Sequence record: NC_029021.1
Source: Enterobacteria phage JenK1
Length of the DNA stretch: 60,747 nt
Strand: one strand, 5' to 3'
In this document: piece by piece, positions 16,130 to 43,578 of the stretch
Numbering within the stretch: position 1 is the stretch's first letter
Layout: the number at the start of each line of letters is the position of its first letter
Translations under genes and position numbers: made by a program
Notes under the pieces: generated by a model
What the model was told of the DNA's origin: nothing
Seen by the model: only the letters and a program-made list of their open reading frames with translations
The model's database searches: none

Positions 16130-19100
16130 ATGCCACCAGCAATAATTGGAGCTGTAGTTGCTATCGGTGCAGCGGCTGGGGCAGCGGCAGGTATTATCAC
16201 AGCCACTACTGCGCTTGTGATTGGTATTGCTGCCAGTGCTGCTGGAGCTCTACTTACAAAAACTCAGAGCTATAACTTTGACTCCTATACACCTCAGAGT
16301 GAGCGTAAACAGGTTATTCGTGCTGCTGCTGCATCCAGGACAGTGATTTATGGGACAACTGTGTCTAGTGGTGTTCTTGTATTTGCAGAAGAAGAACCTG
16401 GAGTACAGGATCCAGATAAACACGGTGAGAACTACGAGAAGTTGACTCTTGTATTGGCATTAGCTGGGCACGAACTGACCGAAGTAGGACAAGTGTGGTT
16501 AGGGGATGATCCAATAGGTACTTATGCGGGAAATGCGTCCTATAAGGTATACAACAATCCTACTACGGTCAGCCAAGACATGTTGAATCGTTGCCCATCA
16601 TGGAAAAGGGACATGATTGGTAAAGGTATCTGCTGGATGCAATTGAATCTAGTATATGATTCACAGAAGTTTCCAGCTGGGCTTCCTAATGTCAAATGTG
16701 TTAAGAAGGGGAGAAAAGTTCTAGACCCTAGAACTGGTCAGATGGTGTTTAGCAATAATGCCGCCCTTGTGATTTTGGACTATCTTCGAGTGTATCTTAA
16801 ACGCGGAGACGATTCAATTCTTTGGGACCAGTTCAAAGAGGCCGCTAACATATGTGATGAAAGAGTTAAGAACGCGGATGACACGTTTGAATCCCGGTAT
16901 ACTATCAACGGGGAATTTGACATGGATGAAGCACCTTCCAAGATCCTGGAAGACATGCTTGACGCTTGCGGTGGGGAGTTGACTTATATCGGCGGTAAGC
17001 ATGGTATCCTAGTAGGTGCATATTACGGGCCTCCGGAATTAACTCTGGATACGAGTTGCATTGCTGGTGACATTAAAATCACACCAGAGACAGCTTTTAA
17101 AGATCGAACTAATACAATCACAGGTACTTACATCGATCCTCTGCAAAACTATCAAGAAGCAGACTTCCCGTCTGTAAGTGTTTCTGAATGGGTACAACAA
17201 GACGGTCAAGAGATTACACAAGACGTCGATTATCGTTTTGTCACAAGCCCATATCAGGCTCAACGTCTAGCTAACTTGACGTTGAAACGCAAACGTATTG
17301 GTCGTTCCATCGAGATACCATGTAACATGCGTGGGTATCGTTTCCGTCCAGGTATGTATGTCTACGTTGACATTCCTAATATTGGAATGAACAAAGTAGA
17401 GATGCGTGTTATTAAGTGGCAGTTTGATCCGAAAGGTGGTGTCACTGTAACTGTACGTCAAGACTTCCCGGACTTATGGGACGATGCAATTGGCAAACCT
17501 GTAGAGCGACCAGATCTAGTGGATTTGCCTACTGGTGGCGCTATGCAACCTCAGAACCTACAATATGAAGTCTTACAAATTAGCGACGTTGTACAGGGTG
17601 TTCTGTCGTGGCAAAATATAATGGCTGTAGCCTACAACAACGTAGTAATTAAGAAAGATGGTACTACCGTATTGACGGTGCAAGTACCGGGCCAGAGCAC
17701 GCGGATTACGGGGCTTATTCGCGGCGCTTATACAGCACATGTGAAAGCTGTGGCGTATACCGGCGCAACAAGTCCAGAAGCGTATCTTGAATTCAATATT
17801 CAAGCACCTTCCGCCCCTACGTCTGTTGAAGTAACGCAAGGCTACTTCGCAGTGACATTGAAACCAAAATCTGCAGATCTGGCGAACGTTAGTACACAAT
17901 ATGATTTCTGGACGTCCGGTGAAACAAGATTACCATCCGCCGCTGTAGACGTTGTAGAACGACAGGCCACCCGTGCTGGTATGGGCACAACGTGGACTTC
18001 AGAGGGGTTGCTTAATGACCACACTTATTACTGGTACGTGCGGGCAATTAATGCTTTTGGTTCTTCTTCATTTGTAGAGGTGGCTGCAAGATGCTTCACA
18101 GATGCTGCTGGCCTTATTCCGCAAATTGACACAGAGTTCAAAGGTACTAACACCTATAAAGAACTTATGGCTGAGATTGGAAGCGTCAGCGATGGTGTCA
18201 AGAGTTATGTGGACGACCAAATTGAAACCTCTGAAGGGCGCTTAACTCAAACAATAGATACAGTACAACAATCTGTAGTTCTTGTTGACGGTAAAGTGCA
18301 GCAACAGGGCGTCACAATCAATGAACAGGGGCAGTTAATAGATGCTCAAGGTAAGTTGATCGAGACAAACGGCCAACAGATCAATGTGGTCAAAGCTACT
18401 GTACAGGAAGTCAGTAAGTCCGTTGTGGATCTTGAAGGTAACGTCAACGCTCAGTGGGGTGCCAAGATCCAGGTAGATAGTAAAGGTCAAAAATACGTTG
18501 CCGGTATTCAGTTAGGTATGGAAGGTTCCGGTGGAGCCATTCAATCTTACTTTATGGTCAACGCCAACAACTTCGCTATCTATAACCCAACTAACAGCAC
18601 AGCGGATTTAGCATTTGCAGTTAAAAACGGTCAAGTGTTCATGAAGGCAGCGTTCATTGAGAACGGTTCTATTGATAATGCTAAGATCGGTAACTATATT
18701 CAATCTAACAACTATGTAGCTGGTTCTGCAGGCTGGAAGTTGAATAAAGCTGGGGATGCTGAACTGAATAATGTTGTCGTGAGGGGTACGGTATATGCCA
18801 CGAACGGTAGATTCACAGGCGAGATACAAGCAACTAGTGGGACATTTAAAGGTACAGTTGAAGCAAGTAGATTTATCGGGGATGTAGTCGCAATCTATAC
18901 TTTCCCAGATATATTAAGTATAGGTACGGATATTTCCGGTGAGCAATATAAAGTATACACTTATAATGACTCGTCATCCTCCCCACAAGCAAGATCTGTT
19001 GTATTTGATTGTATAGTGAGAACTACAAATACTACAAATGGATATAAATTAAAACTAACATTAGCAGGTCAATATAGGGAATATGTATTCTATCAAACTA

Positions 19101-19258
19101 ATACTATGATTCCTATAAAATTCGGAGTAAGTGGAGTTACAACACGTAGTATACAACTGATTCTGGATACAGATAGGGGTAGTGGTACACATATAGATAT
19201 AATAGCACCGACATTAACAATAGGGAGAGCTAGTGGTACTTTCACTGTAAGTGGATAA
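16130..19258 (+). CDS. tail tip / host specificity protein (lambda J-like)
   Basis: 1042 aa; C-terminal half contains segments matching lambda J as recalled (YVAGIQLGMEGSG...NNFAIYNP, fibronectin-like YYWYVRAINAFGSSSFVEV). Confidence 0.85.
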   Translation: MPPAIIGAVVAIGAAAGAAAGIITATTALVIGIAASAAGALLTKTQSYNFDSYTPQSERKQVIRAAAASRTVIYGTTVSSGVLVFAEEEPGVQDPDKHGENYEKLTLVLALAGHELTEVGQVWLGDDPIGTYAGNASYKVYNNPTTVSQDMLNRCPSWKRDMIGKGICWMQLNLVYDSQKFPAGLPNVKCVKKGRKVLDPRTGQMVFSNNAALVILDYLRVYLKRGDDSILWDQFKEAANICDERVKNADDTFESRYTINGEFDMDEAPSKILEDMLDACGGELTYIGGKHGILVGAYYGPPELTLDTSCIAGDIKITPETAFKDRTNTITGTYIDPLQNYQEADFPSVSVSEWVQQDGQEITQDVDYRFVTSPYQAQRLANLTLKRKRIGRSIEIPCNMRGYRFRPGMYVYVDIPNIGMNKVEMRVIKWQFDPKGGVTVTVRQDFPDLWDDAIGKPVERPDLVDLPTGGAMQPQNLQYEVLQISDVVQGVLSWQNIMAVAYNNVVIKKDGTTVLTVQVPGQSTRITGLIRGAYTAHVKAVAYTGATSPEAYLEFNIQAPSAPTSVEVTQGYFAVTLKPKSADLANVSTQYDFWTSGETRLPSAAVDVVERQATRAGMGTTWTSEGLLNDHTYYWYVRAINAFGSSSFVEVAARCFTDAAGLIPQIDTEFKGTNTYKELMAEIGSVSDGVKSYVDDQIETSEGRLTQTIDTVQQSVVLVDGKVQQQGVTINEQGQLIDAQGKLIETNGQQINVVKATVQEVSKSVVDLEGNVNAQWGAKIQVDSKGQKYVAGIQLGMEGSGGAIQSYFMVNANNFAIYNPTNSTADLAFAVKNGQVFMKAAFIENGSIDNAKIGNYIQSNNYVAGSAGWKLNKAGDAELNNVVVRGTVYATNGRFTGEIQATSGTFKGTVEASRFIGDVVAIYTFPDILSIGTDISGEQYKVYTYNDSSSSPQARSVVFDCIVRTTNTTNGYKLKLTLAGQYREYVFYQTNTMIPIKFGVSGVTTRSIQLILDTDRGSGTHIDIIAPTLTIGRASGTFTVSG

Positions 19259-19263
19259 AAAAT

Positions 19264-19283
19264 AGGCGCTCTATCGAGCGCCT
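19264..19283. terminator. bidirectional terminator between J-like gene and minus-strand moron
   Basis: Perfect 8-bp stem aggcgctc / gagcgcct with tatc loop, A/T runs on both sides. Confidence 0.6.
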
Positions 19284-19288
19284 ATAAT

Positions 19289-19579
19289 TTATTTACAACC
19301 TTCAGACCAACCAACACGGTTCATAGCCGGTGAGCAATCAGGTTTGACTTTTTTACCTTTCATCCACTCAGCTTTAGCTTTACCAGCGGTAGTACCTTCG
19401 TAGATGGAAGTCTGGTGCTCAATGTTACTTACTCCACCAGTATGCCCGCCTAATGATGAACCACTACCAGGACCACCAGCTCCACCATTACCTGGACCAC
19501 CAGTACCACCGGAAGGACCAGTCGCGTAAGCAAACGTAGCAGTCATAGAAAGGATAATGGCGCAGATTAAAGTCTTCAT
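19289..19579 (-). CDS. secreted Gly-rich small protein (moron)
   Basis: Start at second Met (MKTLICAIILSMTATFAYA signal peptide) with AAGGAG RBS; Gly-rich mature region with two C-terminal Cys; opposite strand to flanking tail genes. Confidence 0.6.
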   Translation of the reverse strand: MKTLICAIILSMTATFAYATGPSGGTGGPGNGGAGGPGSGSSLGGHTGGVSNIEHQTSIYEGTTAGKAKAEWMKGKKVKPDCSPAMNRVGWSEGCK

Positions 19580-19610
19580 TTCGAACTCCTTTATGTTTGT
19601 GTGTAACAAC

Positions 19611-19638
19611 TATATAGGGATATAATTTAAGATGTAAA
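19611..19638 (-). promoter_or_regulatory. candidate sigma70 promoter for moron
   Basis: Minus strand TTTACA - 16 bp - TATATA upstream of the moron RBS. Confidence 0.35.
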
Positions 19639-19665
19639 CCCCGATCTTATATAAGGGCACAACTC

Positions 19666-22600
19666 ATGGCAATTCGTTTACATGGTATTTTAGTTGATGG
19701 ATTGAATAAACCAATCGTCAATGCAAACGTCTTCTTACTTGCACGAAGCAATACTATTGTAGTTCTAGGTGGAAGTAAAGCGGTATTTAAGACCGATTCA
19801 CAAGGTGCTTACGACGTCACAGTGAACACCGGGCATTATGTGGTTATCATTGGACCAGAAGGTAAGGAACCATATAAAGCGGGTGACATTGTAATCTATG
19901 CAGATAGCCAGAACGGTTCACTTAACGCATATCTTACTAAATGGGCTCCAGAAGAAACCACACCTGAAATACTTCAGGAAATAAAGCAACTGGTGGCTAA
20001 CTCTGAGCAATTTGCATTGCAGGCGTCTGAATCTGCTGCTAATGCTAAGAAGAGTGAGCTTAACGCGGAGACAAGTAAAAACTCTGCTGCAACGGACGCA
20101 GCGTCAGCTCTGCTGTCAAAACAGGAATCTGCTGCTAGTGCGTCTTCCGCATTGCAATCCAAGAACGCTGCGGCTGGTTCTGCTACATCAGCTCAACAAG
20201 CTCTTACTGCTGTGCAAGGACTCAAAGCTGAAGTTCAGCAATTAAAAACCGACACGCAGCATATTAAAGAAGAGGGCGTCGCTGAAGTAACAGCTCTCAA
20301 AAATGCTGCAACTACTGCGGCTAACAATGCTAAAGCATCAGAAACTGCATCTGCTAATAATGCGACTTTGGCTGATACTAAAGCAAAGGAAGCGTCTGCA
20401 AGTGCAACCACTGCCAATCAAGCGAAAGTAGCTGCTGAGGCAGCAAAGGCCGCATCCGAAGCAAGCGCAGTTGAGTCCGCTACTTCTGCTGGTAAATCGC
20501 AGACCGCAGCTAATGCAGCTAAGGCAAGCGAGACGGTTGCAACACAGAAGGCAGCTTCGGCCTCTACGTCTGAAACTAATGCGGCAGCTTCCGCTCAGAC
20601 TGCGACTAGCAAAGCTGGTGAGTCTGCCGCTAGTGCTACCGCAGCTAAGGCAAGCGAAACTAATGCTAAGACTTCAGAAACTAATGCTGGTACATCAGCT
20701 GGAAGATCTGAGTCTGCTGCTTTACGCTCAGAAGCTGCTGCCCAACGTGCGGAAGACATCGCTGATGCAATTGGTCTTGAAGACGCAACTTTGACTGTCA
20801 AAGGTATCGTTCGTCTTAGCAATGATACTAACAGCACTGCTGAGAACCTGGCAGCTACACCAAAAGCTGTTAAAACAGTCATGGACGTTGTTAATACTAA
20901 AGCTCCGTCAAGCAGTCCTGTTCTAACTGGTGTACCAACGGCACCAACTCCAGCACCTGAAGTCAATAACAATCAAATTGCTACAACTCAGTTTGTACAC
21001 CAAATTATAAGCGCACTGATTGGTGATGCACCAGGCGCTTTAAACACTCTGAAGGAGTTAGCTGACGCTCTTGGCGGTGATCCGAATTTTGCAACGACGA
21101 TAACCACACTTATTAACAGTAAGTTGGCTAAAGATCAGAACGGTGCTGACATTCCTAATAAGCAATTGTTCATTGATAACGTTGGTCTACGCGAGACTGT
21201 CAACTTAGCTCTCGGTGCATTGAAGAAGAACCAAAACGGTGCGGATATACCGGACAAAGGTGTCTTCCTTAATAACATCAATGCTGCCAGCAAGACGGAT
21301 ATGGCCGCTAAGAAAGGCATGAAATATACTGTGGTCAATGCCCCAGCGGGGGTTGAAGCAGGTAAGTTTTATCCTGTTGCGATTCGTCGTTCTTCTGGAT
21401 TCAGCAGTGAATTAGCATCCAGGGTGACAATAAGTACAGGTTCAAGAACGGGAAACCATAGGCTGAACAACTGCGAGTTCAATGGTTTTGTTATGACTGG
21501 TGGTTGGACTGACAGGGGACGTTATGCTTATGGAATGTTCCACGCATATACTGCAAATGAACGTGCTATTCATTCCATTCTGATGAGTAATAAAGATGAT
21601 GATCTGTGCTCTGTGTTCTATGTCGAAGGTGAAGCGTTCCCTATTTCTGTATATGTAGAAGAAGGTTTATCTGTTGTTGTACCATCTGCCGACTATGTTG
21701 TCGGACAAACGACTTACAAATGGGGTGCTACAGACCCTAGAACAGAATGCGTGGCCACTGATACTGTACTTGATTTCTCCAATGGTAGAGGATTCTATAG
21801 TTCTCACGCTCTCCTCACAAATGTAGATATTAGTGGTGCCAGAATCTACGCTAACGGTGAAATCGTAGCTCGTGGTGAGAATCAAGTCCGCATGATTGGT
21901 GGAGACTATGGTGCATTATGGCGCAATGACGGTGCCAAGACCTATCTCTTATTTACCGCTAAAGGCGATCAATACGGTGGTTGGAACGATTTAAGACCAT
22001 TTATGATTGATAACGCTACCGGTGAGTTTACCATTGGTACTAAATTGAACGCCGGTCAAGGTGTGAATGGTAACGCATCCAGTGCTACTAAGTTACAAAC
22101 AGCGCGTAAGATTGGTGGCGCCTCGTTCGACGGTACTGCTGACGTCAATCTTCCAGGTGTTAACATTCAGGGTAATCAGAACACAACTGGTAATGCGGCA
22201 ACTGCTACCAAACTACAGACAGCACGTAGGATTGCCAATGTACCTTTTGATGGTAGTGGTGATATATCAATTCCACCTAGAAATGTGAATGCGTTTGCGT
22301 TAGGACTGACAGGTAGTATTAGTGTAGAAGATGATATAGATAACAACAGCGTTCCGTGGAATGCTATATCTGGTGTCTATAACCATCAGAGAAGGGGTAG
22401 CTCGGATCTTGTAGTTCACTTTTATCAACATACTGGTTCAACTCCTGCTTTACAGATAAGAGGTAACTATAAGAATGGTGGTATTTGGTATCGTACAGCG
22501 CGTGATGGCTATGGTTTCGAAGAAGATTGGGATCAAATTTACACTAAAAAGAACCCACCTCCTGTGGGTGAAACCTTACCTGTAGGTGTTCCATTACCGT

Positions 22601-23328
22601 GGCCTACAGATACACCACCGTCCGGTTATATTGTAATGCAGGGTCAACCCTTCGATAAAGCTGCATACCCGAAACTGGCTGCTGTATACCCAACGGGTGT
22701 ACTTCCAGATATGCGTGGTCAAACTATCAAAGGTAAACCAGCAAGCGGTCGTGACGTACTTTCTACAGAAGCTGATGGTGTGAAATCACATACTCACACT
22801 GCGTCTACTGCATCTGTCGATCTTGGAAGCAAGACAACTTCTAGCTTTGATTATGGTACTAAAGGGACAAGTAGTTTCGACTACGGTACTAAGACGAGTA
22901 ATAATACTGGTGCGCATACACATGGTATTAGCGGAACAGCAAATAGTGCAGGTGGGCACCAACACCAGAGTTCTGGACCATATGCGAATTCTAGTGATAG
23001 TGATCTCTTTCCTAACGGTTATACCCAGGTTTCAGCCACAAACAAACCAGTTGTACCACGGCAAGGTGGCGCAGGTATGACCCGTGTATCAGGGAAGACA
23101 TCATCAGATGGTGCTCATACCCACTCGCTGTCCGGTAGTGCCGCAAGCGCAGGTGCTCACGCACACACTGTTGGTATTGGCGCGCATACGCACTCAGTCG
23201 GTATTGGTGCTCATAGTCATACAGTCGCTTTAGGTTCGCACAGCCACGGTGTTACAGTTAACGCAACTGGTAACACAGAAAACACTGTTAAGAACGTTGC
23301 ATTCAACTATATTGTGAGGGCTGCTTAA
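19666..23328 (+). CDS. stf: side tail fibre protein (lambda Stf-like)
   Basis: 1220 aa; N-terminal domain, long Ala/Ser/Thr-rich repeat region, and C-terminal GAHxH repeats ending [16 protein letters not shown], which matches the lambda Stf C-terminus as recalled. Confidence 0.85.
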
Positions 23329-26108: not shown

Positions 26109-26144
26109 GTGGGCCAGTATAAACGTATTGGCCCACTTTTTATT
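26109..26144. terminator. terminator at convergent junction of plus late genes and minus replication operon
   Basis: 8-bp stem gtgggcca / tggcccac, 12-nt loop, then TTTTTATT on plus strand. Confidence 0.55.
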
Positions 26145-28116
26145 AAGCGGCGTATGCGAGTTTTTCCAGCAATTTTTCCGCTTTAGCTATGTACACTTCG
26201 TGGTTGAGATCTGGCGGTAATTGGTCAGTGAGTTCCATCATTGGTTTACCCCCTGCTGTCTTACCAACACGACCTCCACTCTTGACTATTAGTATTTCAG
26301 GTACTTCTTCTTTTGTATAGTACCAGCGAACAACCTTACCTAACGGCTCACTATTCCACGCAGCTCCACCATTAGCTGTCTTGATACAAACAAACTTACG
26401 AATATCCTGACACTCTGTGATAGTTTTGGCAATTGGTGTACCGTCACGAAGCAGATTAACAACTGCATCCATAATGATCTCACCTTCTGCGTTTTTAGCA
26501 AGACCTGTCTCAGCGAACCAACCTTTACGCTTGGCTTTACCATCCGCTTTGATTGCAACGTAGTTGTTAACGTTTGCAGAGTTAAGGCGCAGGTACTGGT
26601 TCAACTCCATTTCAAAGCCAGTTGTCTCTTCCCACCACTTAATGATATCTGTCATTAATTGCTTCTTAGCTTTGCAAGGTTTAATAACAATACCGTCCGT
26701 GTTAGCACTGACGACCTGAATACCGTTAAGCTCCAGTGTTTCAATGAGCATAAGCAAAGCCAACTGGCCTGTCAATGTGGTCTGAATAATAAGGTGCGGT
26801 GCATACAGAATAGAGAACGGTGAACCGAACTTACCATAAGAACCGTTAATAACGATCTTAAGAGTTTGTGCAGTCTTATCGTCATGAGCCATCTTAGCTG
26901 CAATACGTCGTTCTACGATCTTAACAAAGATATCTATAAAGCGCGGGCCCAGGTGCTCAGGATACAGTTGCTGGTTAATGATACAGATTGGGTAGTATGA
27001 CGTTACGTCAGCATCCCACATCTCTTCATCTTCAGATGGTACAATCTCCATTAACTCTTCGCAGGAGTGCAGACCACCGATACCCATGTTGTAGGTTGTC
27101 TGATTGATTGTAAACTTCAAAGAGTTCATTGTAGATGGTTGCTTAATTTTACCATCTTCTGCAACTCGGAAGTAACTATCAAGCACAACCTGAAATACAG
27201 ACTTCATTAGTGGAGTTTGGAAACCTAACCACACTGGAGGATTGTACCTAAAGGTTCTGCCAACTTCCACCATTCCCTTCTGTGGTACGAAGCCCAGCAT
27301 TTCCTTCATTTCGTGACGGATTACAGCTTCTGCAATCTGTGCATCGGATTTAGAGCGAAGGTCCACTTTATACTCTTCACTCATAATCTCACGTAGATGG
27401 ATCTGTTCTTCCAGGGAGTTAAACAGAGCCATTGTTGTATCAAGGTCGTTAATACAGTAGAAGCGCACAATAGCGATCTGTTCTACGGATAACGCCCAAT
27501 GTGGTGGGAATGGTAAGTCCTGGAGCTTCTGCATGTGCATACGGCCACCATACAACTTCAGCGAACCGAAGCCAGGAGCTACCTCTTGAACGTCAATGTG
27601 GTCAATCCAAAACTGTTTTACACCAAAACTGTTAAGAATGTCCCACGGAGCCCACTCTTCCTGGATCATCCTGTCACTTGCTTCTTTCAGCTTGTCAACA
27701 GTTAAACCAGCAATGGCAAGGAATGTCATCGTATTATCGTAGTTTCTTGAGTTGAAACCAACAGTACGAAAGTTCTTCATTATCCATTCATATTTTTCCG
27801 TGTCGAGTGTCTGACCGGCAGTCATTTCTAGATAATAGACCTTACCGAACTTAACCCCTTTAAACGCCACAAGAAAATAGTTCTTGTAACATTCAATATC
27901 GTATACGAACGTTTCTTGCGCAAAATACATCTCCACTAATTCACCGTCTGTCATACGCGGATCATTAGCTGCAAAACGCATTGCTGCATCAAGACCTGGA
28001 AGGTAATCCGGGCGTTCCCATACCCTTTCAACTGGTTGACGTTTTACTTTCTGTTTCTTCTCTTTCTTAGCGGGAGGTAAATCCTCCCAAAAGAAACCAA
28101 TAGCATCTTTTCTCAT
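26143..28116 (-). CDS. DNA polymerase, family B, with 3'-5' exonuclease motifs
   Basis: 657 aa; Exo I YDIE, Exo III YCINDLD, motif A DVTSYYP, motif B KIVINGSYGKFG, motif C NTDG. Confidence 0.8.
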   Translation of the reverse strand: MRKDAIGFFWEDLPPAKKEKKQKVKRQPVERVWERPDYLPGLDAAMRFAANDPRMTDGELVEMYFAQETFVYDIECYKNYFLVAFKGVKFGKVYYLEMTAGQTLDTEKYEWIMKNFRTVGFNSRNYDNTMTFLAIAGLTVDKLKEASDRMIQEEWAPWDILNSFGVKQFWIDHIDVQEVAPGFGSLKLYGGRMHMQKLQDLPFPPHWALSVEQIAIVRFYCINDLDTTMALFNSLEEQIHLREIMSEEYKVDLRSKSDAQIAEAVIRHEMKEMLGFVPQKGMVEVGRTFRYNPPVWLGFQTPLMKSVFQVVLDSYFRVAEDGKIKQPSTMNSLKFTINQTTYNMGIGGLHSCEELMEIVPSEDEEMWDADVTSYYPICIINQQLYPEHLGPRFIDIFVKIVERRIAAKMAHDDKTAQTLKIVINGSYGKFGSPFSILYAPHLIIQTTLTGQLALLMLIETLELNGIQVVSANTDGIVIKPCKAKKQLMTDIIKWWEETTGFEMELNQYLRLNSANVNNYVAIKADGKAKRKGWFAETGLAKNAEGEIIMDAVVNLLRDGTPIAKTITECQDIRKFVCIKTANGGAAWNSEPLGKVVRWYYTKEEVPEILIVKSGGRVGKTAGGKPMMELTDQLPPDLNHEVYIAKAEKLLEKLAYAA

Positions 28117-43260: not shown

Positions 43261-43578
43261 TTATTGCAAAGATAAAGATACAGTAATAAAGTTTCTTGCC
43301 TGAATATCACTACTTACATTTTTGTCATTCATTGTGGATTCTACGAACTGCATTACTTCCTTCGTAGACATACCCGATTCTGAAGCTGTTCTTGCAGCTT
43401 TACACAGACCGATGCTAGTCTTAATGACGTTATCAGCGTACTTCTTATCAATATTGTAACGCTCATTCTTAATAAGAATGTCTTTATTTACAATGTCTGA
43501 GACAGTTTCACAATTGAACGTATATGCGTTCGCGTTGACAGATACAACTAATCCTAACAAAACAAGTAGCTTTTTCAT
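43261..43578 (-). CDS. secreted small protein
   Basis: Signal peptide MKKLLVLLGLVVSVNANA; AAGGAG RBS; own promoter upstream. Confidence 0.6.
   Translation of the reverse strand: MKKLLVLLGLVVSVNANAYTFNCETVSDIVNKDILIKNERYNIDKKYADNVIKTSIGLCKAARTASESGMSTKEVMQFVESTMNDKNVSSDIQARNFITVSLSLQ

Follow-up and report, generated by a model that had tools for sequence, protein, structure and literature searches.

A small secreted protein encoded opposite the tail genes of Enterobacteria phage JenK1 and its possible role in superinfection exclusion

A lone minus-strand gene behind gpJ

The subject of this study is a small gene on the minus strand of Enterobacteria phage JenK1, which fills the space separating gpJ (16130-19258, +) from the side tail fibre gene (19666-23328, +) and overlaps neither; the window, i.e. 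the whole stretch of DNA analysed, comprises 60,747 nucleotides (nt) of sequence record NC_029021.1. The gene runs from an ATG at 19579 to a stop codon at 19291-19289, lies 31 nt from the stop of gpJ, and is the only minus-strand gene in the structural arm (1-25.8 kb), which otherwise reads entirely on the plus strand. Its product of 96 amino acids (aa) starts MKTLICAIILSMTATFAYATGPSGG, carries the leader MKTLICAIILSMTATFAYA followed by TGPSGG..., and ends DCSPAMNRVGWSEGCK. An earlier note, made from the letters of this DNA alone, had described such an antisense product with a glycine-rich mature region and two C-terminal cysteines, and the open reading frame (ORF) and its composition are as it described them (table 1).

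The gene as such is already known, being deposited as a hypothetical protein and falling into a PHROG family of unknown function. The region of JenK1 is 98.8% identical to that of Escherichia phage vB_EcoS_HdK1 and 97.9% identical to that of HdSG1, both, like JenK1, members of Nonagvirus (Queuovirinae), and the two records label the small gene 'hypothetical protein'. The length of the ORF is by itself unremarkable, as antisense ORFs of 108 and 125 aa are also present nearby; that the gene is real follows instead from its conservation.

A family of small secreted proteins under purifying selection

The JenK1 protein matches PHROG 2243 (E 5.7e-30; its residues 1-96 align with positions 3-86 of the 87 in the profile), as do its homologues from plasmids and Klebsiella phages (E about 1e-14 to 7e-15). 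A search of 5.8 billion proteins yielded 103 clusters of homologues at 90% identity, and the ratio of non-synonymous to synonymous substitution rates (dN/dS, pairwise Nei-Gojobori method) is 0.04-0.13 among close copies and 0.15-0.4 for more distant pairs with unsaturated synonymous sites. The gene is thus under strong purifying selection. When 1.84 billion representative proteins were searched exhaustively with a profile, only 12 clusters emerged, all of them family members, and hence no bridge to any known family. Scans with Pfam (E up to 10), NCBIfam and PADLOC gave nothing meaningful, and among the full set of PDB chains, 8A60 (Llp) and 9RPS (Rtp45) included, the profile matched none below E = 1. 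We found no paper on the PHROG 2243 family in the literature.

The signal peptide proposed in the earlier note is supported by comparison. All 92 full-length members possess a positively charged n-region and a hydrophobic core, and none of the 92 has a lipobox ([LVI][ASTVI][GAS]C); the JenK1 leader ends in AYA, followed by T, and a small-x-small motif, noted by eye and uncounted, closes the leader in most members. Exactly two cysteines occur in the mature part of 89 of the 92. From these features we infer a protein secreted by the Sec route, with a mature form of about 77 aa and a net charge of about +3 (counted from the sequence).

Glycine richness, which the earlier note had described, is true of the JenK1 protein but not of the family, as the segment is confined to one sub-lineage and is short or absent in most members. 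In JenK1 it includes a 24-nt tandem duplication at 19460-19510, and length variants of 72-96 aa arise through in-frame indels in the stretch, which the comparison identifies as a lineage-specific, expandable linker rather than a family trait. What the family does share is a C-terminal part of about 47 residues, GVSNIExQTxI[YF]ExTxxGKxxAEWxKG[KR], followed by a loop of the form Cys...R.G...Cys. The type of this loop tracks the host genus and not the type of element, with one form in elements of E. coli, Salmonella and Citrobacter and another in phages of Klebsiella and Enterobacter. Resemblance of QTxI[YF]E and GWSE to a TonB box or TolB box was considered and dropped: the motifs are loose, and GWSE is missing in the Klebsiella/Enterobacter versions.

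AlphaFold2 modelling of the full-length protein gave a mostly disordered chain (confidence score, pLDDT, 54.8; below 50 in the glycine-rich part), and modelling of the core only (pLDDT 69) gave two short helices plus a short helix or helical turn within the cysteine loop. With this moderately confident core model, Foldseek returned no match in PDB and only a family member in BFVD.

Expression signals kept in place and renewed in sequence

The ribosome-binding site, called strong in the earlier note, reads AAGGAG (19591-19586), and AGGAG/GAGG motifs are present in other lineages of the family. Further upstream, TTTACA (19638-19633) is followed after 16 nt by TATATA (19616-19611), the pair that the note had named as the promoter, or alternatively after 18 nt by TATAGT (19614-19609), the version that scores 10/12 in the promoter scan. 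The site is thus present, but taken alone it does not rise above chance, with three sites in the region against 3.8 expected from shuffled sequences. More telling are its counterparts at the same relative place in unrelated lineages, namely TTGACA-17-TATGGT, TTGCAA-17-TAGTAT, TTGCAT-17-TATAGT and TTGCGA-17-TATTAT; copies in early operons excepted, a lineage-specific promoter of the form TTGnnn-17-TAnnnT stands about 25-35 nt ahead of the ribosome-binding site.

On its other side the gene is followed by a hairpin (19262-19285) that begins three bases past the stop codon and is succeeded by six U on the minus strand. Its free energy is -21.8 kcal/mol on the minus strand (z -6.4) and -21.2 kcal/mol on the plus strand (z -5.4), where only AAUUUAUUUA follows and the U-tract is weak. 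The "perfect bidirectional terminator" of the earlier note therefore stands as regards the perfect stem and the minus strand, and is overstated for the plus strand: judged by its sequence, the hairpin is an intrinsic terminator of the small gene, strong in one direction only. The promoter scan found no promoter-like site on the plus strand between the hairpin and 19666, so transcription of the plus strand must read through the hairpin for the tail fibre gene to be expressed.

The GC-rich hairpin and T-run after the stop codon differ from one phage or prophage lineage to the next. Because each lineage has its own hairpin, and mostly its own promoter, the function of both signals appears to have been kept without conservation of their sequence, and this speaks more strongly for an independent transcription unit than does the one promoter match in JenK1. 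A promoter and a terminator of its own within a late operon are what define a moron, and at the sequence level both are found here, in keeping with the earlier proposal of an independently transcribed moron set against the tail operon.

Genomic setting across phages and prophages

We compared 27 loci with a family member (referred to by L numbers where needed), in addition to JenK1 itself; they come from isolates, bacterial genomes and the contigs of IMG/VR and Logan/ENA. At all 25 phage and prophage loci the small gene and the large tail gene of the receptor-recognition locus are in convergent orientation. The tail gene is J (1009-1389 aa) in 20 loci and a truncated J on the 2.7-kb contig L028 in one; in the other four, of the Klebsiella/Enterobacter-phage type, it is a tail fibre of 334-414 aa. 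The spacing between the two genes is 27-40 nt in 24 of the 25 loci and 253 nt in one. The backbones concerned are unrelated, namely Nonagvirus, T1-like phages of about 50 kb, lambdoid prophages in E. coli chromosomes, and Klebsiella and Enterobacter phages. The earlier comparison with the position of lom in lambda also holds, as the small gene of the lambdoid prophages comes after J and before the side tail fibre genes.

When one genome per species was scanned, the single match was the said contig L028 from an assembly of Sulfoacidibacillus thermotolerans (NZ_MPDK01000063.1, contig63, 2664 bp), which carries the 3' end of J, the small gene (protein 93% identical) and the 5' end of a tail fibre gene; this coliphage cassette in the assembly of an acidophilic Firmicute is almost certainly a contamination. 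We also observed that several records labelled 'Campylobacter phage A118, A120, A121...' (47-50 kb; H145-H151) contain a gpJ segment with 83% protein identity to a T1-like coliphage contig, and look like genomes of coliphage type for which Campylobacter was given as host.

The slot after gpJ is shared with lipoproteins

Phage 9g is about 90% identical to JenK1 on both flanks of the locus, and the identity collapses from about residue 915 of J to the start of the tail fibre gene. Here 9g carries another type of J C-terminal domain and, in the same orientation as the JenK1 gene, a gene for a 77-aa lipoprotein with an LTAC lipobox (phrog_12984). A lipoprotein of the 9g type also fills the slot in Enterobacter phage AS5. 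The lipoproteins are annotated merely as 'lipoprotein' and measure 77-78 aa (9g, L002 4686-4919, -; AS5, L018 3377-3613, -). They resemble the JenK1 protein in slot, orientation, size and flanking hairpins, within Nonagvirus genomes about 90% identical, and differ from it in their unrelated sequence and their lipobox (LTAC or VGC). The phrog_12984 lipoprotein is a likely candidate for the exclusion factor that goes with the J domain of the 9g type.

Many other records of Seuratvirus and Nonagvirus have a lipoprotein annotated at the post-gpJ slot. In JenP1, JenP2 and BRET the annotations there are 'membrane associated protein' and 'outer membrane protein', the same two labels that a recent paper gives to two genes upstream of cor in T1-like phages. 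Another secreted protein with two cysteines takes the slot in the Salmonella phages GS166 and GS71 and in BHUENT2 and BHUENT9; its ORF, which in GS166 comes right after gpJ (L017 3446-3715, -; 89 aa), is unannotated in GS166 and GS71, and the BHUENT records bear no annotation at all. The first 20 residues of the GS166 protein are the leader of the family members P0077 and P0092 and its mature part is unrelated to theirs; alternative mature parts have thus been exchanged behind one secretion signal. JenK1 itself contains no other exclusion candidate of the lipobox type.

Receptor-binding determinants and their cognate exclusion factors are reported to lie directly downstream of gpJ in such phages (PMC8594841; PMC11990801; bioRxiv 10.64898/2026.04.02.716166). 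Llp and Rtp45 are proven exclusion lipoproteins of about 6 kDa (PMC9586334; PMC12685063): the former binds the periplasmic face of FhuA (PMC9586334), the latter the periplasmic side of LptDE, with a Cys30-Cys38 disulfide (PMC12685063) that is confirmed for Rtp45 only of the two. The authors of the BASEL collection singled out the J receptor allele of JenK1, HdK1 and HdSG1 as matching no known receptor (PMC8594841, legend of S2B). For such an orphan module one would expect an unfamiliar partner protein. Our literature searches (JenK1, HdK1, the accession of the plasmid protein, terminal receptors of Nonagvirus) turned up neither an assigned receptor nor any paper devoted to the small gene.

The small gene and the receptor-binding domain recombine separately

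J proteins of JenK1 and 9g are 86% identical overall, being nearly identical up to residue ~915 and then diverging abruptly; the Pfam domains Phage_Tail_Tip and Ig_J are located upstream of this point. The DNA coding for the C-terminal region of JenK1 J (18850-19300) has a GC content of 33%, against 42-48% in the flanks, which is consistent with horizontal acquisition. DNA homology to 9g, PD328 and the prophages of loci L011-13 and L020 ends at 18882-18886. Compared with PD328 and several prophages, the break falls exactly at 18886/18887 and homology returns at 19289, with the small gene's stop codon; the gene and its promoter are 91-94% identical to theirs, and the J C-terminal domain and the hairpin differ. 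With a lambdoid prophage of E. coli CUPF06, by contrast, JenK1 shares a 1.1-kb block (18648-19752, 91.5% identity) that spans the J C-terminal region, the hairpin, the small gene, the promoter and the first 87 nt of the tail fibre gene.

Because recombination junctions fall at 18886/18887 and 19288/19289, the sequences identify the receptor domain and the small gene as separately exchangeable modules. Across the family as a whole, the neighbouring tail proteins are of at least eight C-terminal types. Conversely, 9g and AS5 have one lipoprotein type despite 32% identity of their domains. Identity between J C-terminal domains proved uninformative for inferring the receptor, amounting to 26-41% whatever small gene follows.

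Homologues beside an adhesin gene on conjugative plasmids

A 75-aa homologue with the same C-terminal loop (DCSPAMNRIGWSEGCK) occurs on 69 plasmids in PLSDB, 62 of which are conjugative. Among 5426 complete E. coli genomes, 55 gave a match, at 54 places on plasmids and three on chromosomes. The three plasmid examples that were typed belong to IncX4, IncX4 and IncX1. At all three loci inspected the gene follows, on the same strand and after 28 nt, a gene for a trimeric autotransporter with a YadA anchor; it sits in the transfer region, with TrbM/KikA upstream of it and a thermonuclease gene downstream. The parallel is striking: in phages and plasmids alike, the gene for a surface adhesin stands beside that for a small secreted protein.

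The plasmid homologue has no lipobox and so does not qualify as an entry-exclusion lipoprotein of the EexN/TrbK type; the IncX4 plasmid pCROD2 carries a separate, annotated EexN family entry-exclusion lipoprotein. A role as immunity protein or inhibitor for the plasmid thermonuclease was rejected, as no such nuclease lies near the phage copies. One family member, P0054, from a Salmonella plasmid contig (L015 8001-8228), is a chimera created by in-frame deletion, its first ~40 residues being those of a YadA-like autotransporter (the leader) and its last 35 those of the small protein. An apparent second family copy on IncX plasmids was likewise discarded, since the "second place" is the leader of the YadA-like gene and resembles P0054.

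Features of the locus and other observations

Table 1. Positions of the features discussed (window coordinates unless a locus is named).
Feature	Position	Strand	Basis or remark
gpJ 3' end, receptor-binding C-terminal domain (J residues ~920-1042)	18887..19258	+	part of J swapped between phages
GC-rich hairpin common to the convergent gpJ and small gene	19262..19285	.	perfect stem of 10 bp, loop of 4 nt
Coding sequence of the 96-aa secreted protein, with stop (PHROG 2243)	19289..19579	-	translation, family match, dN/dS
Sec-type (signal peptidase I) leader, residues 1-19, MKTLICAIILSMTATFAYA	19523..19579	-	leader features; cleavage after AYA predicted
Glycine-rich flexible linker, residues 20-49	19433..19522	-	16 Gly in 30 residues; tandem duplication
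Conserved core, residues 50-96, VSNIEHQTSIYEGTTAGKAKAEWMKGKKVKPDCSPAMNRVGWSEGCK, with Cys82...Cys95 loop	19292..19432	-	invariant columns, cysteine pair
Ribosome-binding site AAGGAG	19586..19591	-	6 nt before the ATG; read from the sequence
Sigma70-like promoter	19609..19638	-	TTTACA with TATATA or TATAGT; scan 10/12
Plasmid loci	L016 7563-9234; L031; L032		IncX4 and IncX1

Three further observations concern the rest of the genome. The side tail fibre, a single ORF of 1220 aa in JenK1, is represented in HdK1 by two overlapping coding sequences of 112 and 1112 aa (L001 6667-10333), owing either to a frameshift or to a sequencing error in one of the two. Only one other small secreted protein of the Sec type was found in JenK1, a product of 105 aa (43261-43578, -) that starts MKKLLVLLGLVVSVNANA, belongs to phrog_32702 (function unknown) and is encoded in the minus-strand early/replication arm. 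Finally, the tRNA-Ala(TGC) called by ARAGORN at 26546-26619 (+) lies inside, and antisense to, an ORF of 657 aa (26143-28116, -) and may be a false positive.

A possible exclusion factor without a lipid anchor

What the small protein does can be approached by comparison with known systems. Among the closest are Llp of T5, Cor of T1, phi80 and HK022, and Rtp45 of Rtp. Like these, the JenK1 protein is small and secreted (the known proteins measure ~6-8 kDa when mature) and is encoded directly beside the receptor-recognition gene at the same locus of small siphoviruses, an adjacency seen in JenK1 and at every phage and prophage locus compared; AlphaFold predicts all of them poorly, and the conserved cysteine pair has a counterpart in the disulfide of Rtp45. 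We therefore consider that the small protein may be a soluble, non-lipidated periplasmic superinfection-exclusion or receptor-masking factor, a counterpart of Llp, Cor and Rtp45, and hold this reading tentatively, at a little less than an even chance. It is suggested by the position of the gene, by the allelic replacement with lipoproteins, by the combination of secretion signals, small size and cysteine pair, by the gene's own expression signals of the sigma70 type, and by strong purifying selection in strictly virulent phages. The link between C-terminal loop type and host genus, and the lack of another lipobox-type candidate in JenK1, point the same way.

Under such a scheme, host RNA polymerase would transcribe the gene from its sigma70-type promoter, early in lytic infection and constitutively in lysogens with a prophage copy; Llp is reported to be expressed early in infection (Decker et al. 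1994). The precursor would be exported through Sec and cut after AYA, and oxidation of the two C-terminal cysteines would close a loop of 14 residues. The helical core of 47 residues, with this loop, would then bind the outer-membrane receptor of the J tip, or an envelope component required immediately after adsorption, from the periplasmic side, the glycine-rich segment serving merely as a flexible, expandable spacer. Later virions would be unable to adsorb irreversibly or to inject, and progeny would not be wasted on cell debris. Export, disulfide formation, expression timing, binding partner and exclusion phenotype are all steps that we infer.

Several points weigh against an exclusion role. 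The lipid anchor at the outer membrane, common to all proven receptor-blocking exclusion proteins at this locus, is missing from the JenK1 protein, which is predicted to be soluble, and neither the PDB profile search nor Foldseek revealed any relation in sequence or fold to Llp, Cor, Rtp45 or T4 Spackle; the structure models themselves are of low to moderate confidence. The family is not strictly tied to one receptor-binding domain, and a nearly identical small protein goes with at least four J C-terminal types of 26-38% mutual identity; such independent recombination speaks against a strict rule of one domain and one partner, although the argument is weak, since identities of 26-41% are general among such J C-terminal domains. 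The family also occurs on plasmids of the IncX1 and IncX4 types, where its place beside an autotransporter gene is not obviously a phage-exclusion context. The superinfection-exclusion idea of the earlier note thus fits the literature on the locus (PMC8594841, PMC12685063, PMC11990801) and the sister lipoproteins in the slot; no homology connects the protein with Lom, Cor, Llp or other known families.

Other known systems can also be compared. The lambdoid-prophage copies recall lom and bor of lambda in lying between J and the side tail fibre gene with a promoter and terminator of their own. Lom is an outer-membrane beta-barrel of about 200 aa, encoded on the J strand and not homologous to the small protein, and the JenK1 family is also kept by strictly virulent phages. 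Proteins of the Lom/Ail family measure ~170-200 aa and match the Ail/Lom Pfam model; the JenK1 protein has no Pfam match and a far shorter mature form. T4 Spackle (Sp), from a virulent phage, is a helical, soluble periplasmic protein with a Sec leader and a mature mass of about 8 kDa, and the JenK1 protein is comparable in type of leader, size, helical character, predicted solubility and origin from a virulent phage. Spackle, however, is not homologous, inhibits the tail lysozyme gp5, which is absent from siphophages of the J type, and is not encoded beside a receptor-binding gene. TraT of F-like plasmids, a surface exclusion lipoprotein that also blocks OmpA-specific phages, sets a precedent for a dual role, and the JenK1 family is likewise common to phages and conjugative plasmids; TraT differs in being an outer-membrane lipoprotein of ~25 kDa without homology to the family, and IncX plasmids have a separate EexN.

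The plasmid loci lend some weight to a different explanation, in which the protein is an envelope accessory factor unrelated to exclusion, i.e. a helper or regulator of an adhesin or outer-membrane protein, or a protection against colicins, envelope stress or host factors, carried as a fitness moron. The position 28 nt behind the YadA-anchor autotransporter gene at the three IncX1 and IncX4 loci inspected and the occurrence in prophages and plasmids of E. coli would suit such a factor, and small dedicated helpers are known for some trimeric autotransporters. Strictly virulent phages (Nonagvirus, T1-like) nevertheless retain the gene under strong selection and would have little use for a host-fitness gene; the phages encode no autotransporter, and the slot is otherwise filled by lipoproteins of the exclusion type. 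We regard this explanation as unlikely, if worth keeping in mind.

Somewhat less probable still is a block acting in the periplasm after adsorption, whereby the soluble peptide would hinder the passage of incoming DNA or of the tape-measure/ejection proteins and so act on many siphophages of the J type irrespective of receptor, possibly affecting conjugative DNA too. It would account for the association of the same protein with several unrelated J C-terminal domains and tape-measure types, for its independent recombination, for its predicted solubility without an outer-membrane anchor, and for its presence on conjugative plasmids. Precedents for a soluble periplasmic blocker exist in T4 Spackle. 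The HXS effector is another (PMC13128918). The family shows no homology to Spackle or HxsA, however, and what the small gene strictly adjoins is the tail gene for receptor recognition (J at 21 of the 25 loci), not a tape-measure or early gene, which points to receptor recognition; IncX plasmids already have an EexN lipoprotein, and the low net charge of the mature protein does not suggest DNA binding.

A secreted toxin akin to class II microcins, brought to mind by the composition and the C-terminal cysteine loop, which recall microcin V, is very improbable, given that the leader is of the Sec type and not of the double-glycine type typical of that class, that the gene is flanked by gpJ and the side tail fibre gene, no exporter or immunity gene being nearby, that most family members lack the glycine-rich part, and that no bacteriocin model scored above threshold. 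Hardly any credence can be given to the idea of a non-functional antisense ORF that arose by chance between the two tail genes, for which the antisense ORFs of similar length nearby and the non-significant promoter match might speak, in view of the low dN/dS, the in-frame indels, the homologue clusters spread across elements, the conserved leader and cysteine features, and the ribosome-binding site, promoter and terminator present in each lineage.

Implications

The placement of this family in the exclusion slot as a non-lipoprotein alternative, its modularity with respect to the receptor-binding domain, and its presence in prophages and IncX plasmids appear to be new. A bolder extension, which we think improbable, is that the family forms a new class of "self-masking" peptides, soluble in the periplasm, which accompany the surface adhesin of their mobile element (the J tip in virulent and temperate siphophages, the YadA-type autotransporter on IncX plasmids) and neutralise the adhesin's receptor from inside. 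If this were true, one peptide would provide superinfection exclusion for phages and, for plasmids, surface exclusion or the avoidance of self-aggregation, and it would point to the receptor of the JenK1/HdK1 group.

Receptor-blocking exclusion proteins affect the efficacy of phage cocktails, the survival of progeny at lysis and the resistance of lysogens to related phages. Those understood so far are of the lipoprotein types only (Llp, Cor, Rtp45), and a family without a lipid anchor at this slot would add to the known repertoire. Should the small protein indeed be an exclusion or masking factor, its core of 47 residues would offer a direct handle on the receptor of the JenK1/HdK1/HdSG1 allele, and the link to plasmids could tie phage exclusion to the biology of conjugation.

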